Below, in pieces: positions 8,362-38,256 of a DNA stretch of 38,838 nucleotides (positions within the stretch are counted from its first letter, which is position 1; every line of letters starts with the position of its first letter). Location: the IMG/VR virus record IMGVR_UViG_2531839130_000015. One strand, given 5' to 3'. The stretch comes from a virus (lineage: Duplodnaviria > Heunggongvirae > Uroviricota > Caudoviricetes). Under the pieces are notes generated by a model. The model did not search any database and was not told the DNA's origin. It saw nothing but the letters and a program-made list of their open reading frames with translations. Both the position numbers and the translations under genes were made by a program.

Positions 8362-8661
8362 TGTCCTGATTTGTACTCACTCATTTTCCGCCTGACAATT
8401 TACATAGCCCAAATGCTATCAAATCTGACAGTCTGCTTTGAGCGAGAAACGGACGTTATAGATAGTGTGTTAAGGTTTTCTCTTTAATTGCAATGTCATA
8501 TCCTCAACGACCAAGTAGTGACATTTTTCGTTATTATATGGTATTGTGTTAGAATTAATTTATTGATGCGAAATCATTCAAAGCTTCATTGGTACTTATA
8601 TTTAACTTATAATCTTAATTAAAGAATTTCTTATTTTTAGATATTTTTATGCAAATACTTA

Positions 8662-9414
8662 ATGAAAGGAGGCATAAATTTGGATACTAACAGTCCATTA
8701 ATTGAAGTCGAGCAGAACACTTCAGACATATATATTCCGTTGCAAGCCTGGTTCGAGGGGAGAAAATTCCTTTCACACAGATTTTCGGGCCAAAACTGTA
8801 GTGATAATCCATCAAGTGATTGGGAGGCTTGGTTATCAATACAGGAATGCTGTCCTCTCCATCAGGTCAATAGTCTTAACTGGGTCGGACTGCATGAAGC
8901 CAGGAAAAATACAGATTCATTCTTGGGGAATGTGAAGAGTGAATTTAATGGAAAGCTTCCCATTTTTATTCATGAAAAGGAGAGGGTGATAATCGAAAAA
9001 AAAATCGGCATTCCTCCCAAACCCTCATTACCAATCTATTTAATATCATGCTCTGATATGGATGATACCAATGAACACATTGTTTATGTCGGAAAAACCG
9101 TTAACTCCAAAAGGTTTATTGGCGGTCACTCGGCTGCCTTAAAGTTGCTAGATCCCAAATATAATAATATGAAAAAGAGGATATATAGAGCCACCCCATG
9201 GTTTTATGATGGAAAAGACTATATTTCACTGGATTGGATTAGTCCGACATCATTAGCTATAGAATTACTTGACTTTATAGAGTCTCATCTTATTTACAAT
9301 CTCAAGCCGGAACTCAACACATCGAAGAAAAAAAATGAAGATACACGTTATTCTTTTTATCTTCACATTCAGAACTTTTTATCAACAGGCTTTCTTAATG
9401 ATGAGTTTATTTAA
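8662..9414 (+). CDS. AT-rich cargo protein with a C-terminal GIY-YIG nuclease-like domain and an unknown N-terminal domain (about 244-250 aa)
   Basis: PIYLISCSDMDDTNEHIVYVGKTVNSKRFIGGH fits the GIY...YVG(K/S)(A/T)...R...H pattern of I-TevI/UvrC-type domains, with a downstream IESHLIYN...N segment consistent with the catalytic Glu/Asn. Strong AAGGAGG Shine-Dalgarno at about 8666..8672 suggests the real start may be TTG at about 8680 rather than ATG at 8662. Occupies the P2 Z/fun position. Confidence 0.6.
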   Translation: MKGGINLDTNSPLIEVEQNTSDIYIPLQAWFEGRKFLSHRFSGQNCSDNPSSDWEAWLSIQECCPLHQVNSLNWVGLHEARKNTDSFLGNVKSEFNGKLPIFIHEKERVIIEKKIGIPPKPSLPIYLISCSDMDDTNEHIVYVGKTVNSKRFIGGHSAALKLLDPKYNNMKKRIYRATPWFYDGKDYISLDWISPTSLAIELLDFIESHLIYNLKPELNTSKKKNEDTRYSFYLHIQNFLSTGFLNDEFI

Positions 9415-9440
9415 TATCATTACTTATTAACATAGTAGAG

Positions 9441-9464
9441 ATTAAACTACGTCCGCTCCTGGCA
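9441..9464. repeat. Palindromic hairpin GTCCGCT-N10-AGCGGAC, copy 1 of a three-member family
   Basis: Read directly from sequence: gtccgctcctggcaagcagcggac. Confidence 0.6.
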
Positions 9465-9484
9465 AGCAGCGGACATTGCTGGCT

Positions 9485-9506
9485 GAGTTGAGGGTCCGCT
9501 GTGAGC
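9485..9506. repeat. Palindromic hairpin TCCGCT-N10-AGCGGA, copy 2
   Basis: Read directly from sequence: tccgctgtgagcgaggagcgga, 20 nt after copy 1. Confidence 0.6.
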
Positions 9507-9789
9507 GAGGAGCGGAAGTTCAAAATTTTTCATAACGACTGATGAGAACAACACTAATTTTCGAACTTACTGGTACAAAAAATTTCCATAATCTTATAAA
9601 AAGTGGGGGAGTCAGTATGGTTCAATATTTGAAATACTACTTGTTTATGTTGAGAAAATTTTAAGCTTGACCTGGTTACCAGATTACAGCCGATCAACAC
9701 CTAGACATCGAAACTTAGAGGTACCTCTGCTTTCAGGCATACTTAGAGGTCTATGTCTAAACCACCCGCTATGCAGGTGGTTGATTTAC

Positions 9790-11325
9790 CTAATTCGGCC
9801 TTGCTTGAATAGCAGACTCTATAGCTGCTCGGAATTCCGGGGCATCAGTTCTTAATCGATAATCATCAAGGGTATTGAATATTTCTAGAAGTTCTCTACG
9901 ATAATGCAGCGGTGCTGAATTACCTTCGCCTCTAGTGGTGAAAATTAATAATGAGTCAGCGACGTCTTTTAATTTTTTATTCCTTTTCAACCTAATATAA
10001 CAAGATACAACTATATCAAGAATATGCTTTCTAGATTTCAAGGTGAGTTTATTATTAGGCATAACCAACTGCAGCATAGCACCAAGTAATTTGGTAGCCT
10101 CTTTTGAAATATAATGAAGATCGAAATTATCTATTTCTTTATTTTCTTGAGGAATCTCCTTTTCATCTATCCATTCGCATTGTTCTGCCCAATCTGTAGC
10201 GACGCTAAATAAATGACAGAGAAGGAAGTGAAAAGGTGTTTCCCATTCACCACTATATTCATCTGATTGCCTATTCATATTCTTTATAATTTTCCTTGCG
10301 AAATATGAATAGTAATGCAACCATAAATGATCCTGAAGACCCTGGTGAATACCTTCATGAACCATAATTTCAAACAGCGTGACACCTGAGTAAATAGGAC
10401 ATTTATATTTTGAAGCATCGTAATAGGAACCTAAAGACTTATTAAGTGCAGCAATAATTTTTTCATCTTCATCTAACCTCCAGTAGAGATAGTCACCGAT
10501 ATCACGGTATATTGCTAAATCAGCTGCAAACTTAGCATTGGAAAAGAAAAAATGTAATATACGGTTGTTTTTTGGAATCAATAAACGATGTCCTCGACTA
10601 ACGTTAAGATTATTTTTAAGCTCAACATATAGACGACTGTTAGGTGAACCAAGTAATGCACTGATAAAATTAGAAGTAAAGTCAGAACGAACTATTGGCT
10701 CGATCTTGATTAACTCAAGGCAGAGGGATGGGTGCGCAAGTGCAAAGTGATTGGTAAGTTCAGGTGATGAGACAATATTTAACAATGCTTCATGTGCATG
10801 TTCAGCAGCTGTCTCGCGATTAGAGATGCGGAGATTGTTAGCTATCTTATCACAAAGTCGATTCTTCACAGGTCTATCAATTATTGATATTAATTTTTCT
10901 AGTTGAGGTGCCAACAATTGTGCCAGATCGTCGTATCGTTTAGTAAGGTGCAAATTTTCCACTAACTCTAGAAATATCCCTGTTCTTCCAATTGAGAGTT
11001 TAGGGTTTTTTAAGCGAAATGAAATGTAAATAGCAACTGCGAGTGATATCAGGTATACGGCACTTGAACTATCTAATCCCCATTTCCAGGGGCCAAAGCT
11101 AAAATATAAGTCTAGTGATTTTAAAGCCGGTGCAAACACCAAATAATTGCTTAGTAAGAATGCAAACCCAACAATTACCCAATCCCACCACGCTAGGCAG
11201 AACCTTAAACGTAGTCGAGCGTTTGGCGTAATAAGGGCCCATACAGCAGCAATAACGCCCAATATGGTAAGTAGACTTGATGTATCAATTTTGGTTGGCG
11301 GTGTCATAATTTCTCTTGTAATCAT
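9790..11325 (-). CDS. AT-rich cargo membrane protein (511 aa): about three N-terminal TM helices plus a large soluble domain with an HExxHxxxxxH motif; function unknown
   Basis: Hydrophobic segments LLTILGVIAAVWALI, WVIVGFAFLLSNYLVFAPAL, AVYLISLAVAIYISF; motif VHEGIHQGLQDH resembles zinc-metallopeptidase HExxH/metzincin spacing; no P2 backbone gene of this kind recalled; convergent with the upstream GIY-YIG gene. Confidence 0.6.
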   Translation of the reverse strand: MITREIMTPPTKIDTSSLLTILGVIAAVWALITPNARLRLRFCLAWWDWVIVGFAFLLSNYLVFAPALKSLDLYFSFGPWKWGLDSSSAVYLISLAVAIYISFRLKNPKLSIGRTGIFLELVENLHLTKRYDDLAQLLAPQLEKLISIIDRPVKNRLCDKIANNLRISNRETAAEHAHEALLNIVSSPELTNHFALAHPSLCLELIKIEPIVRSDFTSNFISALLGSPNSRLYVELKNNLNVSRGHRLLIPKNNRILHFFFSNAKFAADLAIYRDIGDYLYWRLDEDEKIIAALNKSLGSYYDASKYKCPIYSGVTLFEIMVHEGIHQGLQDHLWLHYYSYFARKIIKNMNRQSDEYSGEWETPFHFLLCHLFSVATDWAEQCEWIDEKEIPQENKEIDNFDLHYISKEATKLLGAMLQLVMPNNKLTLKSRKHILDIVVSCYIRLKRNKKLKDVADSLLIFTTRGEGNSAPLHYRRELLEIFNTLDDYRLRTDAPEFRAAIESAIQARPN

Positions 11326-11596
11326 TGTTTGATGTACATCGGAATGGTTTCAAATGATAAGGCTCTGTGTATGATAAATCAGAACGTTATGCACGTTTAA
11401 GAATACCCTCAAAATGGCACATTTTAATCTAAAAATGGCATTAAATGGACACTACTTGTCCACACAAGTTTTTTTCAGTCGGCTTTTCCCGACTAACGTT
11501 TGGGGTGTCCTATTGAAACTACGCTCCTTATAAAAGCAATACTGTAGCTGTATGTTTATCAAAGGGGTTGTGCTAACCAAATTACTGAAGCCTAAG

Positions 11597-11681: not shown

Positions 11682-12209
11682 TTATTGTGGCATTTTCGGC
11701 CATTCGGGATTTGCAGGATCCACACGGCTGACCAGAACACTGTAGCGTTCCCATGCTTCCAGTCGGCTATGCTCCTCATCTGTTGCCATGTTCAGCCTGA
11801 CAGCGCGCTCCAGTGGCTGAATAACGCTTTCCGCTTCGGAAAGTAACGCGGCCTTTTGTGATTCTGTCTGTTGTTGCTGTTCGTCTGCCGTATAAATCCG
11901 CTTAATCACGGCACCATCCTTAAACATCCATTTACCTGAGTCATCAGCACGTCGGTTGGCGGTAATATCAGGAACCTCGACAACGCTAAAACCTTCAGGG
12001 TTAAGCGTTGAAGCATCTCTGGTGATGCCGACAATTATATTATTCTCGTCGTAAACAATCTTTATCGTGTCTTCCTGAAAATTACTTACTTCCTCATACC
12101 AGTTTTTTCCGTCTTCGGACCATAACCAGATAACATCAAAATTTTTTGTCAGTTGATATTGAGCAACAGTTTTTGGATTACCCGCAGTAATATTTTTTAA
12201 ATGCTGCAT
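11682..12209 (-). CDS. G: Tail fibre assembly chaperone G (175 aa)
   Basis: MQHLKNI...[29 protein letters not shown] matches recalled P2 gpG. Confidence 0.9.
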
Positions 12210-12212
12210 AAA

Positions 12213-14435
12213 TTACACCTGTGCGACGTTATACCATGTGCCATTGATGTATTTTTGTATCGGTCTGAATACTGCGGGGTCATCACCATCGACTTCACCG
12301 ACAATACCAAGCCCTGTAATTACGTGCCCTGCTTTCTCATACATAACCCCTTTCTGCATAGTCTGAACAACACGAGTGCCCAGGCGAATATCCCGGACAT
12401 AGCGAGAATCTGATTCAGCTTTGGTGTATGCACCAACATCTCCCGCTGATGGTTTTCGTGTTGTGGTATAGAAATCAGACCAGCCAGATTCAAAACCATA
12501 ACCATCACGGGCTGACCTGTAAGATATACCGCCATTTTTATAATTCACACGAAACTGTACAGCCGGGCAGCTACCAGCATTTATATTAAAGTGAAGAATT
12601 AATGCAGATGCTCCCCCAATCAGAGCGTTGTATGCGCCACTGTCCCAATTCCATCCAACGGCTGTATCACCATTAACCGTATTACCTGTCTGCCGAAGTG
12701 CAAATGCACCGACATTTCTGGCATTAAGGGTAATATCTCCAGAACCATCAAAGGCAACACCTGCTATTTTCCTCGGTGTTTCGAGTTTTGAGGCTGTTGC
12801 AGCATTTCCTGAAAGGCTGGAAATAAATGGATGTGAACAGTAATAACCACGTCCATTTTTAAAATCCAGAATAGCCTGTACGTTCGTGCTTTCTGTAGCG
12901 GGATTAGTTGCCCCCCACTTATATGTCGTCTGACCGACGACATAATCCTCTGTCGGAACAATAACCGTTAGCCCTTCCTCTGCAAGAATTTGTACTGGGA
13001 AAGCTCTGGCTTCAACATAAAAAACACTACATACATCATCATCTTTCAGGCTTGTAACAATGGAATGGATTGAACGCTCATTAGTCTGATACGTCCAGAA
13101 ATAACCTGCCGCATATGAACCACGATCGGTCCAGCCTCCGGGCATAACCATGCCATTAAACTCGCAGTTATTCATTACATAATCGCCGTTATAACAACCA
13201 GTTGAAATAACGACGCGGGATGCCATTTCTCCTGAAAGGCTGGCAGCACGGCGAAAGATAACGGGATACCACTTCCCGGCAACGACATTTGCAGGGGCTG
13301 CAAACGAATACTTTCGCATTCCCTTTTTCTTATCCACTTCACCTTTGCTGTAAACATTAATGTTACTCAGGAAGCGTCCTTTATCAGGAATATCCGCACC
13401 GTTCTGATCTTTCTGAAGACGTTTTTCAGCATTGTCATAGGCAGACTTCACCGCTTTTGGTGTTGCAGCCAGCGTTTCAGAATCACTGTTGGTGGCGCTA
13501 CTGAGCTGGACAAGACCTTTTCGCGCTGTGGTGGCATCCTGTGCAGTGTATTTCCCGTTAGCAAGGTCATACGCTGTCTTAACCGCCTTTGGCGTTGCCG
13601 CAAGCGTTTCAGAATCGCTGTTGGTGGCGCTACTGAGCTGGACAAGGCCTTTTCGCGCGGTGGTGGCGTCCTGTGCAGTGTATTTCCCGTTAGCAAGGTC
13701 ATATGCTGCTTTTACCGCTTTTGGTGTTGCGGCGAGCGTTTCAGACGTGCTGTTGGTGGCACTACTGAGCTGGACAAGGCCTTTTCGCGCTGTGGTGGCG
13801 TCCTGTGCAGTGTATTTCCCGTTAGCAAGGTCATATGCTGCTTTTACCGCTTTTGGTGTTGCGGCGAGTGTTTCAGACGTGCTGTTGGTCGCACTGCTTA
13901 ACTGAGTAAAACCTTTGGCGGTCAGCGAGGCGTCCGGGTGACGTCGTGACTGTTCATGTTCTGCAATTTTGTCATCAACGTAATCCTGCGTTGCCATCAC
14001 CGTTGTGGTGTCAATGGTCAGCGCCACTGAGGCCACACTGCTGACGATGATGACCATGCGGCAGGTCTGCGAACGCCCTGAGCCTTCGGCAAGAGCTGGC
14101 TTATAACTTTCAGCCATGTTCGCCACGGCAATTAACGTTCCAGCATCATCGTACAGGCCAAGCTCACGCATCCAGAAACCGCCCACCTCCGGCGGAATAA
14201 CCAGCTCTGCGATAATATAATTACTGTTTCGTTTGTCCTGGCTGATTTTGTTCAGCGCATGTCGCCAGACTTCGTGGATAAGCCCGGTCTGTCCGGCATC
14301 CGGGACAGGCAATTTACCACCGCCATCCCCGACGGCCATCGTGGTAATGTTGACCTTCCGCCCTCCCGGCGCGGTTGCCGCTGCCAGCTTTGCTGCACCA
14401 GCAGTGGTGATAACGGTTCTGAATTTTGTGCTCAT
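12213..14435 (-). CDS. H: Tail fibre protein H (740 aa) with internal tandem repeats and an AT-rich distal receptor-binding region
   Basis: N-terminus P2 gpH-like; four tandem copies of an about 40-aa unit (…LSSATNSTSETLAATPKAVKAAYDLANGKYTAQDATTARKGLVQ…); product longer than recalled P2 gpH (about 669 aa). Confidence 0.85.
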   Translation of the reverse strand: MSTKFRTVITTAGAAKLAAATAPGGRKVNITTMAVGDGGGKLPVPDAGQTGLIHEVWRHALNKISQDKRNSNYIIAELVIPPEVGGFWMRELGLYDDAGTLIAVANMAESYKPALAEGSGRSQTCRMVIIVSSVASVALTIDTTTVMATQDYVDDKIAEHEQSRRHPDASLTAKGFTQLSSATNSTSETLAATPKAVKAAYDLANGKYTAQDATTARKGLVQLSSATNSTSETLAATPKAVKAAYDLANGKYTAQDATTARKGLVQLSSATNSDSETLAATPKAVKTAYDLANGKYTAQDATTARKGLVQLSSATNSDSETLAATPKAVKSAYDNAEKRLQKDQNGADIPDKGRFLSNINVYSKGEVDKKKGMRKYSFAAPANVVAGKWYPVIFRRAASLSGEMASRVVISTGCYNGDYVMNNCEFNGMVMPGGWTDRGSYAAGYFWTYQTNERSIHSIVTSLKDDDVCSVFYVEARAFPVQILAEEGLTVIVPTEDYVVGQTTYKWGATNPATESTNVQAILDFKNGRGYYCSHPFISSLSGNAATASKLETPRKIAGVAFDGSGDITLNARNVGAFALRQTGNTVNGDTAVGWNWDSGAYNALIGGASALILHFNINAGSCPAVQFRVNYKNGGISYRSARDGYGFESGWSDFYTTTRKPSAGDVGAYTKAESDSRYVRDIRLGTRVVQTMQKGVMYEKAGHVITGLGIVGEVDGDDPAVFRPIQKYINGTWYNVAQV
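13430..13925. repeat. Four tandem about 120-bp coding repeats inside tail fibre gene H
   Basis: Near-identical repeated DNA blocks seen directly (e.g. tggtggcgctactgagctggacaag... recurring); corresponds to the repeated peptide unit in H. Confidence 0.8.
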
Positions 14436-16944: not shown

Positions 16945-17688
16945 ATGGATAAATATCAAATCTGGGAAAATCAAAAAGACACCATCGCCCACCAAGAGTA
17001 TTTAAAAATCTCCGACACCAATTTACTTGGACATATGCATATTGCCAATTACGAAGTTGTCCAACATGAATTAAGCAAATTCAACTCCCCTGACATTGTT
17101 TCCCGTCATTCATTTAACAGAGACAAATTTAAAAAAGAACATTTAAACATATCAAGACACCTTTTCAATTATATATCTTCAGCATTATCATTTAGAGATT
17201 CAACGCGCAACCTACTTAAAACAAAAGCATTAAATATTGCCGACATTAAAATCAAATCAGAGGCATTCATCAATCATGAATTCCGAAATAATCCAGTAAT
17301 AAAATTAATGGAGGATTTAAGAAACATCCTGACGCATCAAAACATGATCGCCCCATCAATATCATCATTCATGCACCTCCAAAGAAATATAAACATGCAC
17401 GGCTTTTCATTTAAGATTGAAAGAATCTTAAACAATGACAGAACCACCAAACAAACAAAAGAATATTTAATCTCACTAAAGCAAAAAAACTTATTCATTT
17501 TACCGATAATAGAAGAATACCAATACACGACTCTTAAGTATCAACACTGGCTTTTAGCAAGTATCTACACTGTTCATCAAGATACTTACCAAGAATACTG
17601 GAATGCGAGAAAAAACATCATGAACGAATGGGGAGGAGACACTCAGCTAATACCTAAAGAGAGTGAGCTCACTTATTTAACCAGATAA
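16945..17688 (+). CDS. AT-rich cargo protein (247 aa), unknown function, with an R-N-x3-H (HEPN-like) motif
   Basis: Clean ORF with AAGGAA Shine-Dalgarno; inserted between V and S and divergent from V; motif LRNILTHQN; no confident family assignment. Confidence 0.55.
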   Translation: MDKYQIWENQKDTIAHQEYLKISDTNLLGHMHIANYEVVQHELSKFNSPDIVSRHSFNRDKFKKEHLNISRHLFNYISSALSFRDSTRNLLKTKALNIADIKIKSEAFINHEFRNNPVIKLMEDLRNILTHQNMIAPSISSFMHLQRNINMHGFSFKIERILNNDRTTKQTKEYLISLKQKNLFILPIIEEYQYTTLKYQHWLLASIYTVHQDTYQEYWNARKNIMNEWGGDTQLIPKESELTYLTR

Positions 17689-17721
17689 CAACCTGGTCAG
17701 TTCGCAAACGGAAAAAACTGG

Positions 17722-17742
17722 CCGCGACATTTTATCGCGGCC
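17722..17742 (-). terminator. Hairpin terminator between the 247-aa cargo gene and S (functions for the minus-strand O-to-S late operon)
   Basis: GCCGCGAcattttaTCGCGGC; on the minus strand the hairpin is followed by CAGTTTTTTCC. Confidence 0.5.
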
Positions 17743-17892
17743 TTAAACATTCAAACGATCACCATTGATGAATCCTTATGCCCCAATCGACTGTATATTT
17801 TCAAGTGGCAATTAAAACTTATCCGACGAAAATACAAAGAGTGTTATACAACAATCAACAACTCAGCAATAAAGCGTAAAAAAATTGCACAA

Positions 17893-18345
17893 CTAACGAT
17901 CGAGGTGAGCCAGGATAATCTCTTCAATCATCTGCACATCCTTACCGGTAAAGCCGAGCAAAGGACGCGCCGGATAATCAATTTTCTTACCGTCTTTCCG
18001 GGTTTCTTCCGACAGACCAAACTGATGCACGCTGGCGATTTTCGGTGACTTCCCGCCGTAAAATTCCATTGATGCCTGTTCCGGGCTGGCGCGGATATGC
18101 AAAAAACGACTGGTGATAAGTTTCGCAAACATTTTTCGCTTAACGCGACCGGTCTTTTTTCTGGCGCTCTGCTGCTGGCGTGGCGCGTAGGGTGTGCCGT
18201 CCGGGGCTTTCTGTGCCATCACCCGACGCTGCTGACTCTGACGCAGACGTTTCGCCAGTTCGGCGCTCAGTCGCCGACGCCCTGACGGTGACAGCGATTC
18301 AATCAGCCCGGTCAGCCGGTCTTCAAAACGCTTAAACTCATTCAT
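17893..18345 (-). CDS. S: Tail completion protein S (150 aa)
   Basis: Size and synteny with P2 gpS; start overlaps the stop of the R remnant. Confidence 0.85.
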   Translation of the reverse strand: MNEFKRFEDRLTGLIESLSPSGRRRLSAELAKRLRQSQQRRVMAQKAPDGTPYAPRQQQSARKKTGRVKRKMFAKLITSRFLHIRASPEQASMEFYGGKSPKIASVHQFGLSEETRKDGKKIDYPARPLLGFTGKDVQMIEEIILAHLDR

Positions 18346-18538: not shown

Positions 18539-19288
18539 TCACTGATCTCCTTCGGTCAACGGAGATTGTATTTTCCGCATTGATTCTCCTTTAAGTTCGA
18601 TCTTGATACTGCCATGAACCAGTCGATCTAGGATGGCATCCGCATGTGTGGAGTCTCCGATCATTTTGTACCAGTTTTCCACCGGCAACTGGCTCACTAC
18701 GATGATTGAGCCTCGTTGGTACATCAGATCCACTATTTCCAGCAGGTCGCTACGCTGTTCTGATGAGAGAGGTTCCAGCCCCCAGTCATCCAGAAGCAGC
18801 AGATCGCTATTATTCAGCCTGGTCAAAAGTTTGCTGTATCTTCCATCAGCATGCCCCTGATAGCACTGTTCCATCAGCGCTTTAAGGCGATAATAGTAGA
18901 CCTTGTATCCCTGTCGGCAGGCATTATGACCAAGTGCACATGCCAGGAACGTTTTACCGCTGCCGGTGGCCCCGGTCAGTAAAATATTTTGTTTCAGGGT
19001 TAACCAGTTTCCCTGACTGAGTGAACGGATGAGGGCCCTGTCCAGCCCTCTATTGTTACGATAATCCAGCTTTGATAACTCAGCATTAAGTCTGAACCGT
19101 GCATGTTTGATCAGACGCTCTGCCTTCCTGTTTTCACGGCAGGTTAGTTCTTCTGCTGTCAGTAATGACAGGCGTTCTTCGAAGCCCAGCTCCTGGTATG
19201 TGCCCGGTTGAGCAAGTTGCTTTTTAAGCGCATCACGGAAGCCGGTGAGTTTAAGTGCGGTCAGTTGTTCGTAAAGATGATTCATCAT
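18539..19288 (-). CDS. istB: IS21-family helper ATPase IstB (249 aa)
   Basis: Walker A LLTGATGSGKT and Walker B LLLLDDWG, DnaC-like AAA+ architecture typical of IstB. Confidence 0.85.
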   Translation of the reverse strand: MMNHLYEQLTALKLTGFRDALKKQLAQPGTYQELGFEERLSLLTAEELTCRENRKAERLIKHARFRLNAELSKLDYRNNRGLDRALIRSLSQGNWLTLKQNILLTGATGSGKTFLACALGHNACRQGYKVYYYRLKALMEQCYQGHADGRYSKLLTRLNNSDLLLLDDWGLEPLSSEQRSDLLEIVDLMYQRGSIIVVSQLPVENWYKMIGDSTHADAILDRLVHGSIKIELKGESMRKIQSPLTEGDQ

Positions 19289-19299
19289 TGGATCCCGTA

Positions 19300-20841
19300 T
19301 CAGTGGTAATACTCACTGCCGCGTACGTTTTCGTGTTCCATCGTGGATAACAGATCTGGTTTTGGATCCTGAACAGGTTGTTTATCCAGACCTTTTTCCA
19401 GGATCGATTTAATACCTGACAGACGCCATACCTTTGTTTTCAGAGCTCTTGCACATGCTGCATTAAGTCTGGCTTTACTGTATTTTTTATGAAGGTTCAG
19501 GAGTCCAAGGCAGAAGCGATAGCTTTGTTCCGGATGTGGACGAGAGTTCAGTATATGAAGCACATAACTATGAGTTTCACTGCCTATGTGCCCCGCCCAT
19601 TCCAGAAGACGCTCTGGCGTCCAGGTGGCATGCTGTCGATGAGCTTCAGGCATGTGCTCGTTGCGGGTACTGTAGCCATAAGTACGCTTGCGCGGGTGCA
19701 CAGCAACCTCCTGCCCCTGATTGAAGAGTCTTACCAGTTCTCCGGAGATCCATGCTTCCAGTTGCTGGCCTAACAGCGAACATGGAACCGAGTAGTAATG
19801 TTTGTCGATTTCCACGTGGTAATCGGCATGAACTCTGACTTTCTTCACCAGGGTGTAACTGTAACTGGCTTCAGGAAGAGGCTTCAGTGCGGGTTTATCA
19901 AGCTGGATGAAGAGTTCTGCACGTGAATAACCCAACTTCTGCATTATTTTGTTATTCAGTCTTTCCAGCAACTCCCGAATGCGCTGATTAAGCGATGCAA
20001 GGCTGTAGAAGATCTCATGCCTGATTCGGGCCATGATCCAGCGTTCAACAACCTGAACGCCAACTTCAGCTTTGGCTTTATCTTTCGGTTTACGTGGCCG
20101 CGCAGGCAAAACTGCGACATTATAATGCTCAAGCATCTGCTGGTAGGTAGGGTTAACGTCAGGATCATACTTACATGCCCTGGATGTGGCGCTTTTCAGA
20201 TTGTCCGGAACAACAAGTTCAGGAACGCCACCCAACCACTGGAAGCAGCGAACATGACTCATCACCCAGTCTTCAGGCTGCTGAGACCAGGTGGCCTCTG
20301 CCCATGTGTAACTTGATGCCCCGAGAACAGCTACGATGACCTGAGCAGTTCTTATTTCTCCGGTCTCAGGGTCGGTAACGCCAACGGTAGGTCCACAGTA
20401 ATCAACGAAAAGTTTTTCGCCAGCTTTATGTACCTGACGCATTGATGGTGAAGTGGTTTTGAGCCATTCACGGTACATCCGGCAGTAATGGTTATAGCTG
20501 TAAAAACCGCCTGGATTACGCTCACAGTATTCTTCCCAGAGTAGCTGCAGCGTCACGCATTTATTACGCAGTTCCCGGTGTACTGTAGCCCAGTCAGGCA
20601 GAGAGTGCTTCTTCATCTTAACCTGGGTCTGAAGGAACGCATGTTTTAGTTTTGTATCATCCCATCCTGTAGGTAAGGGCCACTGCTTTATGCCAAGTTG
20701 AGCCGCCCGATTAGCATATCTGGATACAACGGAAGGGGAGATTGCAAGACTACGACCAATTTGTCGATGGCTGAGTCCAACACCGTATTTAAGCCTAAGA
20801 ATTTCTTTAAGTTTTCTCATAGAAATTGGAACTGTTGGCAT
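19300..20841 (-). CDS. istA: IS21-family transposase IstA (513 aa)
   Basis: N-terminal HTH plus integrase-like core, directly upstream of istB in the same orientation; family recognised by recall, specific IS name not assigned. Confidence 0.8.
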   Translation of the reverse strand: MPTVPISMRKLKEILRLKYGVGLSHRQIGRSLAISPSVVSRYANRAAQLGIKQWPLPTGWDDTKLKHAFLQTQVKMKKHSLPDWATVHRELRNKCVTLQLLWEEYCERNPGGFYSYNHYCRMYREWLKTTSPSMRQVHKAGEKLFVDYCGPTVGVTDPETGEIRTAQVIVAVLGASSYTWAEATWSQQPEDWVMSHVRCFQWLGGVPELVVPDNLKSATSRACKYDPDVNPTYQQMLEHYNVAVLPARPRKPKDKAKAEVGVQVVERWIMARIRHEIFYSLASLNQRIRELLERLNNKIMQKLGYSRAELFIQLDKPALKPLPEASYSYTLVKKVRVHADYHVEIDKHYYSVPCSLLGQQLEAWISGELVRLFNQGQEVAVHPRKRTYGYSTRNEHMPEAHRQHATWTPERLLEWAGHIGSETHSYVLHILNSRPHPEQSYRFCLGLLNLHKKYSKARLNAACARALKTKVWRLSGIKSILEKGLDKQPVQDPKPDLLSTMEHENVRGSEYYH

Positions 20842-26679: not shown

Positions 26680-26852
26680 TGTCAGGAGTCCTGAATAGTG
26701 ATTAGAGGAGTCACATGTCGGCATCAGTTTCCCGACGATGCGCATCCTCCGCCATCAGTCCCGGATGGCTTATCACTGACACAACAGCACCTTAGCGAAT
26801 CGCGGGGCGCGACTCAGTAGCCTTGCCGTGTATTCATCACGGCGAGGTATTC
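26680..26852. promoter_or_regulatory. Divergent late promoter region between O and P (Ogr-dependent promoters expected)
   Basis: Inference from P2 organisation only; I looked for a clean TGT-N12-ACA Ogr site by eye and did not find an exact match. Confidence 0.4.
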
Positions 26853-28625
26853 ATGACCATCACCACAGACACCACTCTTTTACACGACCCGCGTCGTCAG
26901 GCGGCGCTGCTGTACTGGCAGGGATTTTCCGTGCCGCAGATTGCCGCCATGTTGCAGATGAAACGCCCGACGGTGCAGAGCTGGAAACAGCGCGACGGCT
27001 GGGACAGCGTTGCCCCCATCAGCCGTGTCGAAATGAGTCTGGAAGCGCGGCTGACCCAGCTCATCATCAAACCGCAGAAAACCGGCGGTGATTTCAAGGA
27101 AATTGACCTGCTCGGACGCCAGATTGAACGACTGGCACGGGTAAACCGCTACAGCCAGACCGGCAACGAGGCAGACCTTAATCCGAACGTCGCTAACCGC
27201 AACAAAGGCGGGCGGCGCAAACCGAAAAAGAATTTTTTCAGTGACGAGGCCATCGAAAAGCTGGAGCAGATTTTCTTTGAGCAGTCTTTCGATTATCAGT
27301 TGCACTGGTATCGCGCCGGGCTTGAGCACCGCATCCGCGATATCCTGAAATCCCGCCAGATTGGCGCGACGTTTTATTTTTCCCGCGAGGCGCTGCTGCG
27401 CGCCCTGAAAACCGGTCATAACCAGATTTTTCTGTCGGCCAGTAAAACGCAGGCGTATGTGTTCCGTGAATACATCATCGCCTTTGCCCGTCTGGTTGAT
27501 GTTGACCTGACCGGTGACCCGATTGTCCTGGGCAATAACGGCGCAAAACTGATTTTTCTCGGCACCAACTCCAACACCGCGCAGAGCCATAACGGCGACC
27601 TGTACGTCGACGAGATTTTCTGGATCCCGAATTTTCAGGTGCTGCGTAAGGTGGCATCAGGTATGGCCTCACAGAGTCACCTGCGATCGACCTATTTCTC
27701 CACCCCGTCCACGCTGGCGCACGACGCCTACCCGTTCTGGTCGGGTGAACTGTTCAACCGGGGACGCGCCAGCGCCGCCGAACGCGTGGAAATCGACGTC
27801 AGTCATAACGCCCTTGCCGGTGGGCTTCTCTGTGCGGACGGCCAGTGGCGGCAGATTGTCACCATTGAGGACGCCCTGAAAGGCGGCTGCACGCTGTTCG
27901 ACATTGAGCAGCTCAAACGCGAAAACAGCGCCGACGATTTTAAAAACCTGTTCATGTGTGAATTTGTTGACGACAAGGCGTCGGTGTTCCCGTTCGAGGA
28001 GCTGCAATGCTGTATGGTCGACACGCTGGAAGAATGGGAAGACTATGCGCCGTTTGCCACCAATCCGTTCGGCTCCCGCCCGGTATGGATTGGTTACGAC
28101 CCGTCACACCGTGGCGACAGCGCCGGATGCGTGGTGCTGGCACCGCCGGTGGTGGCCGGTGGCAAATTCAGAATACTTGAGCGTCACCAGTGGAAAGGCA
28201 TGGACTTTGCCACCCAGGCTGAATCCATCCGCAAACTCACCGAAAAATACAACGTCGAATACATCGGTATTGATGCCACCGGCCTCGGTGTCGGCGTGTT
28301 CCAGCTCGTGCGCTCGTTCTATCCCGCCGCGCGCGACATCCGCTACACGCCGGAAATGAAAACCGCAATGGTGCTCAAGGCAAAAGACGTCATCCGCCGT
28401 GGCTGTCTGGAATATGACGTCAGCGCCACCGACATCACCAGCTCGTTTATGGCTATCCGCAAGACCATGACCAGCAGCGGACGCAGCGCCACCTATGAGG
28501 CCAGCCGCAGCGAGGAAGCCAGCCACGCCGACCTCGCCTGGGCGACCATGCACGCCCTGTTAAATGAGCCACTCACCGCCGGTATCAGCACCCCGCTGAC
28601 ATCCACCATTCTGGAGTTTTACTGA
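26853..28625 (+). CDS. P: Terminase ATPase (large) subunit P (590 aa); track ORF starts 10 codons early
   Basis: MTITTDTTLLHDPRRQAALLYWQGFSVPQIAAMLQ matches recalled P2 gpP. Confidence 0.9.
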   Translation: MTITTDTTLLHDPRRQAALLYWQGFSVPQIAAMLQMKRPTVQSWKQRDGWDSVAPISRVEMSLEARLTQLIIKPQKTGGDFKEIDLLGRQIERLARVNRYSQTGNEADLNPNVANRNKGGRRKPKKNFFSDEAIEKLEQIFFEQSFDYQLHWYRAGLEHRIRDILKSRQIGATFYFSREALLRALKTGHNQIFLSASKTQAYVFREYIIAFARLVDVDLTGDPIVLGNNGAKLIFLGTNSNTAQSHNGDLYVDEIFWIPNFQVLRKVASGMASQSHLRSTYFSTPSTLAHDAYPFWSGELFNRGRASAAERVEIDVSHNALAGGLLCADGQWRQIVTIEDALKGGCTLFDIEQLKRENSADDFKNLFMCEFVDDKASVFPFEELQCCMVDTLEEWEDYAPFATNPFGSRPVWIGYDPSHRGDSAGCVVLAPPVVAGGKFRILERHQWKGMDFATQAESIRKLTEKYNVEYIGIDATGLGVGVFQLVRSFYPAARDIRYTPEMKTAMVLKAKDVIRRGCLEYDVSATDITSSFMAIRKTMTSSGRSATYEASRSEEASHADLAWATMHALLNEPLTAGISTPLTSTILEFY

Positions 28626-29828: not shown

Positions 29829-29847
29829 GTGCTTTCCCCGCCTCGCC
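29829..29847. other. cos site (19-nt cohesive end sequence), internal to the prophage
   Basis: gtgctttccccgcctcgcc is the reverse complement of the recalled P2 cohesive end GGCGAGGCGGGGAAAGCAC; located between Q and the tin/old-position cargo as expected. Confidence 0.7.
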
Positions 29848-29990
29848 CGCCCGCTTCATGGGGCGGTTTTAATGCAGGTGCATCATCCCCCCCCGGCAAG
29901 CGCCTGTTCTGGTGCTCGCTGTCAAAAGATATATTTGAAAATGAATGCAAATTTATGCACCTAATGCAGGCGAGGCTAAAAAGAACATCT

Positions 29991-31313
29991 TTAGTTTGTT
30001 TTTTTAACTCCACTGTATTCCGCTATCATCCTCTCAACCGCTGGAAGCAACTCAGCAGGAACGCAAATAGACCTATCTGCCTTTCCAACATCTTTTGGCG
30101 TTTTGTAAGTACCATTATAATTAAGGACGCATTCTTTAAGAATTTCAAAAAGAGAAACAATAGGGTCCACGCCATAGCTATCAATAAACTTTCGATAGCT
30201 ATCATTATCAGATAACGATGAAATATCTCCATGAACAAACTTACACCTAAGCTCATAGATTATTCCTATTTTTGAATCAATATCAATAATTTTCGCCGCA
30301 TCTCTGCAAACACCGCCAACAATTGAATTTTTATTACCATTATTGGTTCCATACATAGCATCCAATGCTATAAATTGATTCAAAAACCTTTCACGTTTGT
30401 CATCCCTCCACCCGTGCGCTATAAAGGAAAGAGCAGACAACATCCTTTTATCAGGTGATGAAAGTATTTTTGTAAGTATCGCCAAGGCTGAATCCGTTAT
30501 ATTTAAATTATATACAGACGGAATATTCACCCGAAACTCACTTTCATGATATTTCCCGACACCAAAAGACTCAACTAGATTATTAACAGCAACTCGATTA
30601 ATCGCAAAAGGATTATCAACCGCAAGACATAAAGCTCCAAACAAACTATCAAACATTTTCACCGCTTTATCCTCTGATGAAGCATATGCCACCACCAAGC
30701 AGGATTTTGACTGTCGAAAATATTTCCCAATTGGTTTATGCCGCATATATTCATCATCATAAAAATCAACAGGAACCTTGATGTCAGTTTTGTCTTTAAT
30801 ATCAGAAAGTAATTCCACCCCTAGCCCCGGGCCATATAAAAATAAATTTTCTCTAAGCTCAAGCTTCCCATCAAAGCCAGCACACCCAAGATTATAAATA
30901 TACGGACAGGATTTTATTCGTGAAAGTATATAATACTTAAACATCTCACTAAGATTTTTTCTATGAACTTGCGTTATAATATCATCAACACAAATCTTAT
31001 CAGGATTAAGCGACAGAAAATCAGCATCAATGCGATTGAAGGCTTCAGAACAAAAACCTAACAATAATCTTTTCGCATTGTGAAGGTCACTTATACCTAA
31101 TTGGGGGCCATATGCTTTTAATAACCTACTAGCACATTTTGCAATCTCCTCATCATTATATGCAAGCCAAAAAACAAAATCTTCTAATGCTTTACCGACT
31201 TGAATACAAGGCTGCTCCTTACCATGACTATAAAAAAAACTTTTGCATAATTTGTTTATCATGCCATTAGAGAACGCAACCTTCATAGATACTTCATCCC
31301 TTAACGCACTCAT
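29991..31313 (-). CDS. AT-rich cargo protein (440 aa), unknown function, at the P2 orf91/tin/old position; possible C-terminal HEPN-like R-x4-H motif
   Basis: Clean ORF with AAGGA Shine-Dalgarno about 9 nt upstream; same orientation as gene A, between A and cos; motif ELRCKFVHGD; no Walker or other catalytic motif recognised. Confidence 0.6.
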   Translation of the reverse strand: MSALRDEVSMKVAFSNGMINKLCKSFFYSHGKEQPCIQVGKALEDFVFWLAYNDEEIAKCASRLLKAYGPQLGISDLHNAKRLLLGFCSEAFNRIDADFLSLNPDKICVDDIITQVHRKNLSEMFKYYILSRIKSCPYIYNLGCAGFDGKLELRENLFLYGPGLGVELLSDIKDKTDIKVPVDFYDDEYMRHKPIGKYFRQSKSCLVVAYASSEDKAVKMFDSLFGALCLAVDNPFAINRVAVNNLVESFGVGKYHESEFRVNIPSVYNLNITDSALAILTKILSSPDKRMLSALSFIAHGWRDDKRERFLNQFIALDAMYGTNNGNKNSIVGGVCRDAAKIIDIDSKIGIIYELRCKFVHGDISSLSDNDSYRKFIDSYGVDPIVSLFEILKECVLNYNGTYKTPKDVGKADRSICVPAELLPAVERMIAEYSGVKKTN

Positions 31314-31396
31314 CGATAATAATTCCTTATAAGTTATTAATGCACGACTACTAAAGCATTGCTTCAGATTTGTTAATGTATCATGATGACATCAGT

Positions 31397-33670
31397 TTAA
31401 GAAAACATCACCCAGTCGTCTTTTACAGCATAACTAAACCGCTCACCGTCATAAATTACTGTTGCCCCGCGCGCCAACGCCTCAAGCTCCCATCGCTGCG
31501 GCCTGATACCGTTCTGAGCAAGGTCAACGCGGATACGGGTAATTTGCATTCTTTCCGACCGGGTCAGTCTGGCCGATGGTGCAATTTCATGTGGTTTTAA
31601 CGGGCTTCCGTTTCTTTGCTGACGATTTGGCGTTCTCAGGCCGTGTTTTAATGCGCCCCTGAGCGCCCTAACAACCTCCGGGTCATTCCATTCTATAACC
31701 CCGTCATCAACCAGATTAAGCACTGCTGCAGCGTGCTCAGACGGTGTGGGAGCCTGTAATGAAGTATCACCACCGGTGAGCTTTCCACAGTTATTGACAG
31801 GACTCCGAGGCGCGGCGATGCCGCTTTTTAAAGTCAAAGGCTCAACGACCGGAACTTTCGGAACAATGCGCCAGTCCGTCGTTCTGGTGATATGAATATG
31901 ACGCGCGCCGAGATGCGGCGCGTAAATGCCGACCACTCTCTCGACTTCTTCCTCGTACTCGTTAACTTCATCCGACGGGCTACGGGCAACCCTGACAGTC
32001 TGACAATCGCGCGGGACATTTGCCCCACCCTGCGCGCTGATATACAACGCAAAATCACCACTGTCTGCGGCGGCGCGTGCAGCCTCGACGCGCTCGTCAA
32101 ACTCATCAGCAATGCTGACGCCGCTAGGCAATTTGCGTAGTTCACGGTAAGCCCCCATTGTCGGCAGGCCAACCGTTTTAAATTGTGGGATACGCCACGT
32201 TGACGCCCATGCGGTAACAGCCGCTGCAGTATCTTTCAGCGGCTTGCCGGTATCGTTATCGAGCTGACCATCCAGTGCATAGCCGTCGATGTTTTTTGAA
32301 ATGTATTTCGCGATATACCCCGCAGCACCGCCCCGGTTAAGATGTTTTGCCTGAAAACGGTTTCGCGCAGCTCCTCTTTCGTCGCCATCCTCTTTGAGCG
32401 CGTAGCGACGCATGATTTCAATAATCTGGTTACGCTGGCGTGGATTACAAAAAAGCATCATATGCCAGTGCGGCGTTCCGTCGTGGTGTGGCTCGACGAC
32501 TCGCAAACCGTAGACCTGTAAATCATTATCCTTGAATGCCGTGCGCATCAGGCTCCAGATACGGCAGAGATATCGCTGCGCATCCTTTGGATTAAATGCC
32601 TCATCATTCCAGCCGTGATTAAGCTGGACGGTTTTACTTTCGCCTTTTCCGACCTGACGTGTCGGGTGATACTTTGACGGCGCGGTCAGCGTGATAAACA
32701 TCCCCACATCGCCCTCTGCGGCGGCGTAACGCTCAATACCGGCAATGGTGTTCATCAGCTCCATCCGGCGAATTTCAGGATTAGAAATACTGCCCATCAC
32801 CTTACTGATAAGGTCGATGCGCTCGCCGGTTTCCCTGTTTTCAAGGTCACACGATTTAAGAAATTCCAGATTTGCCTGGCGGCGCGCACGCACATCACGA
32901 ATGGCATGTTTACTGGCATAAGGAGAACGGTCTTTATTCACCTCCCCGACAGCAATCAGTAACGCCTCATGCCAGCGCATACGCTGGCCTTTAAGCTGAC
33001 TAATCCACCACTCATCGTTAAACAGGCGGGCAATGGCAGAATATGCCTGCCTCGTGGTCATCTGTCCTTTACGGTATTTTTTCCAGAAAAGCGGGGAAAT
33101 ATTGAAAGCACGTGCAGCGCCAGCAACATGACCATACAGATGCGCCTGCGCCTCATCTGTAAACAGCGATTCTTTCTCGCCATGTGCATCAACCCAGGCA
33201 TCGCAGAGTTCCTCATACATCATGAAAAGCTGCGATGAAATACGGGCGGCAAACTTTTTCAGCTCCTTGTCATTCATCCCCGGCAGACGCGCATAATGGT
33301 CACGCTCTGCCAGAAACAGCAACGACGCGTCGGTGTTCATTTCATGGCGCTGATTCACGCGCTCAATACGCGGCCATAAACGGCGCTGAAAAGTGGATGT
33401 GAGGAAATAAAACCCGTGTAGCGGGCTTTTATTGCGCCGTATGTAGTCATAACGTGAAGTAAACAGCGAGCGCAAAAAGTAAGGCAGGCGGTTAATCGTG
33501 GATAAAACACCTTGCACCTGACGCATCTCGTCACGTGTAAGGGGTCTTTCGCGCCCGACAGCCTCGCGTGGCGTATTCCATGCATAAGCACCGGTAAACG
33601 CCTTACCGGTGCCTGCGGCAAACGCAGACGGAGGTACGCAGGTGTATTGCTCCTGGAAAGAATGACTCAT
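31397..33670 (-). CDS. A: Replication initiation endonuclease A (757 aa)
   Basis: Sequence matches recalled P2 gpA (rolling-circle initiator, about 761 aa). Confidence 0.9.
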   Translation of the reverse strand: MSHSFQEQYTCVPPSAFAAGTGKAFTGAYAWNTPREAVGRERPLTRDEMRQVQGVLSTINRLPYFLRSLFTSRYDYIRRNKSPLHGFYFLTSTFQRRLWPRIERVNQRHEMNTDASLLFLAERDHYARLPGMNDKELKKFAARISSQLFMMYEELCDAWVDAHGEKESLFTDEAQAHLYGHVAGAARAFNISPLFWKKYRKGQMTTRQAYSAIARLFNDEWWISQLKGQRMRWHEALLIAVGEVNKDRSPYASKHAIRDVRARRQANLEFLKSCDLENRETGERIDLISKVMGSISNPEIRRMELMNTIAGIERYAAAEGDVGMFITLTAPSKYHPTRQVGKGESKTVQLNHGWNDEAFNPKDAQRYLCRIWSLMRTAFKDNDLQVYGLRVVEPHHDGTPHWHMMLFCNPRQRNQIIEIMRRYALKEDGDERGAARNRFQAKHLNRGGAAGYIAKYISKNIDGYALDGQLDNDTGKPLKDTAAAVTAWASTWRIPQFKTVGLPTMGAYRELRKLPSGVSIADEFDERVEAARAAADSGDFALYISAQGGANVPRDCQTVRVARSPSDEVNEYEEEVERVVGIYAPHLGARHIHITRTTDWRIVPKVPVVEPLTLKSGIAAPRSPVNNCGKLTGGDTSLQAPTPSEHAAAVLNLVDDGVIEWNDPEVVRALRGALKHGLRTPNRQQRNGSPLKPHEIAPSARLTRSERMQITRIRVDLAQNGIRPQRWELEALARGATVIYDGERFSYAVKDDWVMFS

Positions 33671-34674
33671 TCACATACACCGGCATAGACACTACTGCAA
33701 ACGGCTTTATCATTCGCCGAAGCCAGTAAATCAAACTGAGTACCCCCACGCGTTGTCATTGTCCAGTCATGGTAGGTTTCAATTCCGTATGCCTCGACTG
33801 TTACAACCTCAATACGACGTTCTGCGCGTAACGGATCATGTGTGGATGGGAAAAAAGTGGAATTTCCCCGACGGGAGCACGACGCAACCAGTCGTTCCCA
33901 TTCAGCAACCCGCTTTATTTCCTCCGGCCACCGGCGAAAAATTTCTGCCAGTTCAGATTTACGGACATGAATACATGGCATACAACCAACACGGCCACAC
34001 CCCTGCTGATATAACGGATTTGGCTTAATGTCATGTCTTCTGGCTATTGCAAATACATCTTCATGCTTCCAGTGCAAAATCGGGCGATATACATGCAATC
34101 CGGGGGTGTTGTCTGCATCCTCTTCCCAGACAGGTAAAGCTGCGCGTGATGGCGATTCCTGAGCACGCACTCCCTGCCAGCTAATCACTTCCTCAAATTC
34201 ATTGAGTAAAGGCAGGATTACCTGAGAACGCACGGGTTCATGTTTCAGTTCAAATGTGCAAAATCTGGCTTTGGTTGATGGGAAACGCCCCTTCCACAGA
34301 CACAAATCAAGAAACGGGATACCCGTTGGTTTGAGAATTTCCAGCGCACAACTGATGCGCTGGTGCGCTTCTTCTTCCGACATTCCACAATCGTTAACCA
34401 ACAAATCAGGCCATTTGGTCTGGATAAACTTGCGCTTTGATTCAATCCGGCAGGAAAAATCAGCCCTGACCCTTTTAATTGGGCCAAGCCGTTTTTCCAG
34501 ATAATCCAGATATTTCATTGTCTGTGGATGTTCATGTCCCGTATCAGCAAAAACCGGCAATATGGGTACATTTTCTTCAATAGCGACAAGCCACTGAGCA
34601 AGGCTGTCCTTTCCACCTGAAACAAAAATAACATTGATGGTATTTTCAGTATGGCAACGAGCATCAGTAATCAT
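33667..34674 (-). CDS. PAPS-reductase-like PP-loop ATP pyrophosphatase family protein (335 aa) with a C-terminal Cys cluster
   Basis: PP-loop motif VIFVSGGKDSLA; cysteine cluster GCGRVGCMPC; stop overlaps the ATG of gene A. Confidence 0.7.
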   Translation of the reverse strand: MITDARCHTENTINVIFVSGGKDSLAQWLVAIEENVPILPVFADTGHEHPQTMKYLDYLEKRLGPIKRVRADFSCRIESKRKFIQTKWPDLLVNDCGMSEEEAHQRISCALEILKPTGIPFLDLCLWKGRFPSTKARFCTFELKHEPVRSQVILPLLNEFEEVISWQGVRAQESPSRAALPVWEEDADNTPGLHVYRPILHWKHEDVFAIARRHDIKPNPLYQQGCGRVGCMPCIHVRKSELAEIFRRWPEEIKRVAEWERLVASCSRRGNSTFFPSTHDPLRAERRIEVVTVEAYGIETYHDWTMTTRGGTQFDLLASANDKAVCSSVYAGVCE

Positions 34675-37242: not shown

Positions 37243-38256
37243 ATGGCAATCAAAAAACTCGATGATGGTCGATATGAAGTGGACATCCGCCCTACTGGAC
37301 GTAATGGAAAACGCATCCGTAGGAAGTTTGATAAGAAAAGCGAAGCTGTCGCTTTCGAGAAATACACGTTGTACAACCACCACAATAAAGAATGGCTATC
37401 AAAACCAACAGACAAGCGACGTCTGTCGGAGCTGACACAGATCTGGTGGGATTTAAAGGGTAAACACGAAGAGCATGGGAAATCTAATCTTGGAAAAATT
37501 GAAATCTTCACAAAAATAACGAATGACCCATGCGCATTTCAAATTACGAAATCGCTTATCAGCCAGTACTGCGCCACCCGAAGAAGTCAGGGTATTAAAC
37601 CTTCGAGTATCAATCGTGATTTAACATGTATTAGCGGCATGTTTACAGCCCTGATTGAAGCGGAGTTATTCTTTGGTGAGCACCCTATCAGAGGGACAAA
37701 AAGGCTTAAGGAGGAAAAACCAGACACAGGCTATCTCACGCAGGAAGAAATTGCCTTACTGCTTGCTGCTCTTGACGGCGACAACAAAAAGATTGCGATT
37801 CTTTGCCTGAGCACTGGAGCACGTTGGGGAGAAGCAGCTCGTTTGAAAGCAGAAAATATCATCCATAACCGCGTCACGTTTGTTAAAACGAAAACAAACA
37901 AACCACGCACCGTCCCGATCTCAGAGGCTGTTGCCAAAATGATCGCGGATAACAAACGAGGTTTTTTATTCCCTGATGCTGATTACCCTCGCTTCAGACG
38001 AACAATGAAAGCAATAAAACCGGATTTGCCAATGGGGCAAGCCACACATGCACTAAGGCACAGCTTTGCCACTCATTTCATGATTAATGGAGGAAGTATT
38101 ATCACGCTACAACGGATACTAGGTCACACGCGGATTGAGCAAACTATGGTTTACGCTCATTTTGCGCCAGAGTACCTTCAGGACGCCATTTCTCTTAATC
38201 CGCTAAGAGGTGGTACTGAGGCCGAGAGTGTCCACACAGTGTCCACAGTAGAGTAA
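37243..38256 (+). CDS. int: Tyrosine integrase Int (337 aa)
   Basis: P2 Int-like sequence with C-terminal R...HxxR...Y catalytic pattern (ALRHSFATH ... MVYAHF); directly upstream of the att core. Confidence 0.9.
   Translation: MAIKKLDDGRYEVDIRPTGRNGKRIRRKFDKKSEAVAFEKYTLYNHHNKEWLSKPTDKRRLSELTQIWWDLKGKHEEHGKSNLGKIEIFTKITNDPCAFQITKSLISQYCATRRSQGIKPSSINRDLTCISGMFTALIEAELFFGEHPIRGTKRLKEEKPDTGYLTQEEIALLLAALDGDNKKIAILCLSTGARWGEAARLKAENIIHNRVTFVKTKTNKPRTVPISEAVAKMIADNKRGFLFPDADYPRFRRTMKAIKPDLPMGQATHALRHSFATHFMINGGSIITLQRILGHTRIEQTMVYAHFAPEYLQDAISLNPLRGGTEAESVHTVSTVE

Follow-up and report, generated by a model that had tools for sequence, protein, structure and literature searches.

The Caudoviricetes record IMGVR_UViG_2531839130_000015 is a 38,838-nucleotide stretch of Escherichia coli P2-like prophage DNA, here called the window, in which the interval between the replication gene A and cos holds a single AT-rich gene for a protein of 440 amino acids (aa). 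We favor, with moderate confidence, the reading that this cargo gene encodes a stand-alone HEPN RNase, carried as interchangeable prophage cargo and acting as a single-gene abortive-infection system. This reading is based on the position of the gene in a known defense hotspot, on homologues found in prophage cargo slots and defense islands, and on the invariance of two residues, R356 and H361, in the predicted catalytic motif, and it has precedents in the single-protein HEPN tRNases ApeA and DARNA. Much of the setting is already known: the hotspot is published, the gene has been catalogued and domain-annotated, and single-gene HEPN defense is established. What is new is the family itself, which has no Pfam or PADLOC model and carries an unrecognized putative sensor region.

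The gene and its slot between A and cos

We mapped all protein residues to window coordinates. The listing of open reading frames (ORFs) gives the cargo gene as the only ORF of real length in the A-cos interval, which is laid out as follows.

31397 to 33670, minus strand: gpA replication endonuclease, which bounds the hotspot upstream; an ORF whose equivalents in homologous loci are annotated 'replication endonuclease' or Phage_GPA
31314 to 31396, minus strand: 83-nucleotide intergenic gap from A to the cargo gene, with AAGGA and a TG-n-TACATT element, conserved with the Enterobacter and Citrobacter loci
29991 to 31313, minus strand: cargo gene, 440 aa from an ATG start, stop codon included
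29884 to 29990, minus strand: 3' flank of the cargo gene, from the stop codon to the conserved cos region, delimited by the end of P2 similarity and a 3'-flank alignment
29829 to 29847, minus strand: cos core, 19 nucleotides, GGCGAGGCGGGGAAAGCAC, an exact single match common to P2 and P4
28625 to 29659, plus strand: gpQ portal, the boundary past cos; an ORF whose equivalent in strain S65EC is annotated 'phage portal protein'
26823 to 28625, plus strand: terminase P (ORF), beyond cos

On the other side, beyond A, the window continues with early genes and then the integrase. The sequence GGCGAGGCGGGGAAAGCAC corresponds to the cohesive end of P2. Chance matches to this core numbered zero in 100 shuffles, and it also directly borders the inserts that Rousset et al. 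cloned from P4 hotspots.

Both composition and similarity mark the gene as foreign. Its GC content is 35.7%, against 52.1% in the 5-kb flanks, and nucleotide similarity with P2-family phages ends at about position 29883, just past cos, which places a foreign segment at approximately 29884 to 31396. An initial annotation, made from the letters alone, had proposed an AT-rich cargo gene in a GC-rich backbone, replacing the orf91, tin and old genes of P2, oriented as A and preceded by a good Shine-Dalgarno site; position, composition and the end of similarity bear this out, and the boundaries it gave lie close to ours. The Shine-Dalgarno sequence, AAGGA, stands 10 nucleotides 5' of the ATG. An alternative in-frame ATG (M10, 31284 to 31286) is conserved and has an AAGGG of its own, possibly giving a 431-aa product, although third-position synonymous changes in codons 1 to 9 across orthologues favor the first ATG. 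In the gap upstream, the TG-n-TACATT element, seen by eye, could be an extended -10 promoter. Downstream, the flank of about 100 nucleotides is partly conserved with the 62 to 64% identical Enterobacter and Citrobacter versions (loci L005 and L012), in which AGGTGCAT-N5-TTGCAT recurs (GGTGCAT...TTGCAT). The cargo gene thus seems to carry its own 3' flank along, and this flank could be a terminator or part of an extended cos region.

The interval between gpA and gpQ of P2-like phages is a defense hotspot whose arrangements in E. coli number 1,650; in P2 itself it holds old and tin, and several cargos cloned from it protect against phages (Rousset et al. 2022, PMC9122126). Comparison of the same locus across P2-like prophages, as the initial annotation had proposed, shows that the cargo gene behaves as hotspot cargo, lying between gpA and gpQ next to cos in a slot whose content varies among near-identical prophages. 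Orthologues with 62% and 64% identity are the sole gene of the A-portal slot in P2-like prophages of Enterobacter hormaechei and Citrobacter freundii, respectively, and an E. coli 300444 prophage with a 98.5% identical backbone has a different, three-gene cargo there, indicating that the slot is being swapped. The 300444 cargo (L017, 8936 to 12345) encodes a 673-aa 'ATP-binding protein' and two hypothetical proteins.

The gene is a real one under purifying selection. Ratios of nonsynonymous to synonymous substitution (dN/dS) against orthologues are 0.16 to 0.28, with dS close to saturation where the pairs are more distant, and a word-indexed search returned 29 clusters of full-length homologues, exclusively gammaproteobacterial; together these exclude a chance ORF. 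E. coli sequences on record include the identical protein, whose 90% cluster has 398 member sequences, including ones from Salmonella enterica and Escherichia albertii. Copies at least 99% identical occur in 46 of 5426 complete E. coli genomes, every one of them chromosomal, and the GC content of the gene is 34 to 39% in every host. Translated searches (tblastn) with the protein found no match in 50,697 phage records, P2 included, in line with the initial annotation, which matched it to no P2 protein, and none in 72,556 plasmids.

More distant homologues also occur in mobile and defense settings. A 54% identical Serratia homologue occupies another P2 cargo slot, between gpV and gpS; a Vibrio homologue adjoins CBASS and HEPN-RES genes; in Pseudoalteromonas the homologue shares an integrase island with Schlafen-like and DEAD-box helicase genes; and a remote relative has Kiwa on one side and a type IV restriction enzyme on the other, within an integrase island beside smpB.

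The Vibrio homologue is present in three loci from Vibrio and a metagenome (L002, 7079 to 10521; L003, 7042 to 10484; L004, 349 to 3791) with the same flanks, a 222-aa ORF without a domain and a 374-aa HNH_5 protein. A 198-aa integrase-family gene comes next in two of these three loci, and also after the Pseudoalteromonas homologue (L010). This Vibrio-type arrangement could be a small mobile cassette.

The protein, its family and its similarity to ApeA

The protein divides into a large N-terminal region, a C-terminal HEPN domain with the predicted catalytic motif, and a short tail.

30498 to 31313, minus strand: residues 1-272, N-terminal alpha/beta region, from AlphaFold2 secondary structure; no Pfam match
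30114 to 30494, minus strand: residues ~274-400, C-terminal HEPN domain, the segment matched by most of 234 remote relatives
30231 to 30248, minus strand: predicted catalytic R-x4-H motif, R356-CKFV-H361 (RCKFVH), from the translation and alignment
29994 to 30113, minus strand: residues 401-440, variable C-terminal tail with a terminal helix at 420-436; absent from several homologues

An HMMER profile search of 1.84 billion representatives returned 234 relatives at E <=0.001, most of which are 400 to 440 aa long and match through residues ~270 to 390. In a 53-sequence alignment (A2) whose members are 12 to 49% identical to the query, no column is invariant except R356 and H361, and R290, D318, A319, L320, G322, G362 and P384 are nearly invariant; in 22 close homologues (alignment A1) R356 and H361 are likewise invariant or nearly so. 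The catalytic domain is predicted to form a four-helix up-down bundle, and R356-CKFV-H361 fits the conserved R-x4-6-H of the HEPN superfamily. The assignment of the C-terminal domain as HEPN, which the initial annotation had ventured from the R-x4-H alone, is therefore supported at the level of sequence and predicted structure.

The N-terminal half contains strands at eight places, and 26 of its residues, many of them aromatic, are invariant in the close family. Searched alone, these ~270 residues matched no known fold, and we presume them to be a sensor or regulatory module. The tail is the least constrained part: five homologues in alignment A1 stop near residue 402 to 414, and the predicted local distance difference test score (pLDDT) of the AlphaFold2 model falls below 50 at residues 408 to 415. 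For the protein as a whole, PHROGs gave one full-length match, phrog_23812, a family of unknown function that is the protein's own. Sequence searches of the PDB, with the single sequence and with a profile, found nothing, nor did Foldseek against viral structures (BFVD) at E <=0.001.

The closest precedent is ApeA, a single-gene HEPN defense protein (Gao et al. 2020). ApeA is a tRNA anticodon nuclease that assembles into decameric or dodecameric rings; it is ~580-600 aa long and mostly helical, with N-terminal and Mid domains, a HEPN_ApeA domain split by insertions, and catenin-like and PafA-like domains, and Ec2ApeA is activated by 5'-phosphorylated deoxydinucleotides bound between its N-terminal and HEPN domains (Juozapaitis et al. 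2026, bioRxiv 10.64898/2026.01.26.701840). For comparison we recovered the full Ec1ApeA and Ec2ApeA sequences from E. coli genomes. Ec2ApeA, a validated defense gene, is itself cargo of a P2-like prophage in E. coli JNQH497 (L015, 3001 to 4752), where it lies in the gpV-gpS slot between baseplate V and a virion morphogenesis gene and is labeled by PGAP only 'hypothetical protein'.

The cargo protein resembles ApeA in being encoded by a single gene, in having a C-terminal HEPN domain with R-x4-H behind a large non-catalytic region, and in being carried by P2-like prophages. When the family profile is aligned with hhalign against single ApeA sequences, R356 and H361 fall on R502 and H507 of Ec2ApeA and on R521 and H526 of Ec1ApeA, within a shared IYxxRxxxxHxG motif (IYELRCKFVHG here, IYRTRNLIVHTG in ApeA), but only 21 to 23 residues around the motif align. 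Mutation of these catalytic ApeA residues abolishes defense (bioRxiv 10.64898/2026.01.26.701840). Against a 29-sequence ApeA profile, hhalign gave a weak match in the first HEPN helices (probability 35.6%, E 3.9e-4) over 136 columns, or 24% of Ec2ApeA, pairing residues 212-339 of the cargo protein, its late pre-HEPN segment and first HEPN helices, with residues 256-393 of the 583 in Ec2ApeA. Because this match ends 17 residues before R356 here and 109 before R502 there, the large HEPN insertions of ApeA must be missing from the cargo protein. These alignments make it probable that the catalytic domain is distantly related to the ApeA-type HEPN, of which it would be a compact version.

Proposed function and rival explanations

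We think it fairly probable that the protein is an RNase kept inactive by autoinhibition until its N-terminal region senses infection, and that, once active, it stops translation and aborts the infection. The lysogen would make it in autoinhibited form, using a promoter within the 83-nucleotide gap or immediately 5' of it. The N-terminal region of ~270 residues, or a pocket shared with the HEPN domain, would sense a cue from another infecting phage, freeing the C-terminal active site at R356 and H361. By analogy with other HEPN nucleases this site would probably be built across a homodimer, and the protein likely acts as a dimer or higher oligomer. The freed nuclease would cut RNA of the cell. 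The most plausible substrate is the anticodon loops of tRNA, which ApeA, DARNA and PrrC/RloC cut, with mRNA as the other candidate; this choice of tRNA, made by analogy, is doubtful when taken by itself. Translation would then halt, and the infecting phage could not propagate.

A further, more tentative proposal is that the gene founds a new defense family of ~234 clusters at 50% identity, in which a new N-terminal sensor fold, answering to a cue unlike the deoxydinucleotides of ApeA or the single-stranded DNA of DARNA, would gate a compact ApeA-like HEPN domain without a partner. DARNA is a single HEPN protein of ~450 aa that acts as an abortive tRNase and has a large sensor domain without catalytic function; its HEPN domain spans residues 1-159, and a helical Pds5-like C-terminal domain reads single-stranded DNA presented by SSB (Puteikiene et al. 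2026, bioRxiv 10.64898/2026.02.22.705581). The cargo protein is similar in size and likewise joins one HEPN domain to a large non-catalytic region, but its domains come in the opposite order, HEPN following an alpha/beta region, and no similarity in sequence between the two was detected. With old and tin of P2 the gene shares the gpA-cos position and the presumed role in prophage exclusion, whereas the proteins are unrelated, Old being an ABC-ATPase/TOPRIM nuclease.

Several observations weigh against a defense role. About one quarter of P2 hotspot loci carry non-defense cargo, such as partition systems (PMC9122126). Defense requires expression in the lysogen, and a scan of the gap between A and the cargo gene found no sigma-70 promoter at the consensus-scan threshold. 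Homologues in Shewanella and Vibrio rotiferianus stand solo among housekeeping genes with no visible mobile or defense neighbors. The initial annotation had held that finding the gene outside mobile contexts would speak against defense; these two chromosomal homologues are such cases, although the distribution is nevertheless patchy. The cargo protein and 52 relatives are unmatched in Pfam, NCBIfam and PADLOC at E <=0.01, and the same libraries gave stray matches only at E <=10. Since the N-terminal region matches no fold, its sensor role is pure inference. A literature search found no experimental test of the cargo protein or of any family member. The 'Putative HEPN' pFR103, cloned by Rousset et al. 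from the P2 hotspot, is a different sequence, and its entry in their table of 'additional tested systems' is thus no evidence on this gene. The earlier proposal of a defense candidate holds in that defense is the most likely role given the contexts of the homologues, with the qualification that no PADLOC model recognizes the protein.

An alternative to a new family is that the protein is a true ApeA, shortened, with a ring oligomer, a nucleotide ligand between the N-terminal and HEPN domains, and cleavage at tRNA anticodons. Existing labels point this way. Rousset et al. (2022, PMC9122126, Table S5A) list under the label 'HEPN_Apea' a single-gene occupant of the gpA-gpQ hotspot, WP_032190067, which is at least 99% identical to the cargo protein and has this same position in strain S65EC, and UniRef names one homologue 'Apea-like HEPN'; PGAP and RefSeq call the cargo protein a 'HEPN domain-containing protein'. 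The gene was therefore not unknown, as had first been supposed, though we found no paper citing WP_032190067. The aligned motifs and the profile match of E 3.9e-4 also favor ApeA membership, as do a match of one of the 53 relatives to Pfam HEPN_Apea (PF18739) at E 0.018 and the gpV-gpS slot that ApeA shares with the Serratia homologue. Against membership stand the low hhalign probability and coverage and the architecture: at 440 aa against 583-601 the cargo protein is 140-160 residues shorter, its N-terminal half is alpha/beta and without detectable homology to the helical N-terminal and Mid domains of ApeA, the HEPN insertions are missing, and the pocket residues of ApeA lie in domains without a detectable counterpart here. 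Juozapaitis et al. (2026) defined the family by PSI-BLAST from Ec1ApeA at >80% query coverage, and neither full-length homology to Ec1ApeA or Ec2ApeA nor the three-domain, mostly helical architecture was found by hhalign, PADLOC or NCBIfam, or in the predicted structure. The cargo protein does not match Pfam HEPN_Apea even at E <=10, but neither do the Ec1ApeA and Ec2ApeA controls, making this result uninformative, and the ApeA models of PADLOC and NCBIfam are narrow, given that PGAP does not name Ec2ApeA itself. Judged by sequence and architecture, the cargo protein is at most a distant ApeA relative and not an ApeA, and we regard true membership as quite unlikely.

We also consider it unlikely that the gene encodes an RNase toxin serving the prophage outside immunity, through post-segregational stabilization, interference with P4-type satellites or modulation of host physiology. 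HEPN domains are common as toxins in toxin-antitoxin and conflict systems, and the non-defense hotspot cargos and solo homologues noted above are compatible with such a role. However, the gaps flanking the cargo gene, of 83 and 143 nucleotides, leave no room for a second gene and contain no antitoxin-sized ORF, and the sequence beside the gene shows neither a notable Rfam match nor a tandem repeat that would suggest an RNA antitoxin or structured RNA. No neighbor is conserved across the contexts of the homologues, the gene being the sole one at all A-portal loci, and this suggests that the protein acts alone or with host factors. A two-gene HEPN and HNH system, raised by HNH neighbors in Vibrio and in a metagenomic island, was rejected, as the two HNH proteins share no relationship, one of them being a type IV restriction enzyme. 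No adjacent MNT nucleotidyltransferase of the HEPN-MNT (type II/VII toxin-antitoxin) kind was found. Minimal HEPN toxins, such as HepT of HEPN-MNT, and AbiV are 130-150 aa long and controlled by a separate antitoxin or partner, whereas the cargo protein has ~270 extra N-terminal residues and no partner gene. In the RnlA and LsoA toxins a HEPN 'DBD' domain is preceded by TBP-like domains, and weak TBP and LsoA matches had hinted at this architecture; hhalign against E. coli RnlA gave a probability of 0.1%, the TBP-like matches disappeared when the N-terminal region was searched alone, and no RnlB-like antitoxin gene adjoins the cargo gene. A toxin that lacks an antidote would have to inhibit itself, as defense sensors are built to do, and defense genes neighbor the distant relatives. 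Far less probable is a non-catalytic HEPN domain serving as a ligand- or protein-binding module, or a role in the replication or packaging of the P2-like phage itself. Some HEPN domains, as in kanamycin nucleotidyltransferase-type proteins, are binding modules, and the gene runs in the direction of the early replication operon and lies 83 nucleotides after A. The strict invariance of R356 and H361 in a family diverged to 12-20% identity nevertheless argues for catalysis, the foreign GC content marks the gene as cargo, and its absence from P2 and most P2-like phages, with a presence in <1% of complete E. coli genomes, indicates that neither replication nor packaging needs it.

Other features of the prophage and significance

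The cargo gene is not alone in its composition. The initial annotation had ranked it the strongest single-gene defense candidate in the window, a ranking that is not supported, as two more AT-rich cargo islands with unannotated ORFs are present. The second, at ~17000 to 18000 (35.6% GC), contains a 247-aa ORF (16945 to 17688, plus strand) with no Pfam or PADLOC match that looks like cargo, possibly of the gpV-gpS slot. The third, at ~8300 to 11500 (36-42% GC), contains ORFs of 250 aa (8662 to 9414, plus strand) and 511 aa (9790 to 11325, minus strand), again with no Pfam or PADLOC matches, which are cargo candidates. This island is flanked by a 396-aa ORF (7048 to 8238) on one side and by ORFs of 175 aa (11682 to 12209) and 740 aa (12213 to 14435) on the other; by comparison with the P2 map, these are presumably tail genes, which would put the island at the Z/fun position.

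Directly upstream of A, and overlapping its start, a 335-aa protein with a PAPS-reductase domain (Pfam E 5e-35) is encoded at 33667 to 34674 on the minus strand. It shows PADLOC similarity to SspD, BrxP and DndC (E 3e-21 to 5e-5), is also present in the P2-like backbone of E. coli 300444 (L017), and may have a DNA-modification or anti-restriction function in the early operon. An IS21-family element at 18539 to 20841 on the minus strand, beside an AT-rich ORF, encodes IstA (513 aa, with rve and Mu-transposase C-terminal domains) and IstB (249 aa), and through this insertion the prophage may be disrupted. The window begins within a host peptidase U32 gene (1 to 1362) and ends just beyond the prophage integrase (37243 to 38256), which places one prophage end inside it.

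Should the cargo gene prove inactive, it would be a reminder that a hotspot location and a toxin domain are not proof of defense. As a small, partnerless gene in E. coli, it is cheap to test. If active, it would validate one domain-annotated entry of the P2 hotspot and supply a model that defense-annotation tools now lack. It would also join, as a compact new member, the few single-gene HEPN immune proteins whose triggers are being worked out, ApeA and DARNA, and since its sensor region has no known fold, the trigger could reveal a new mode of infection recognition.

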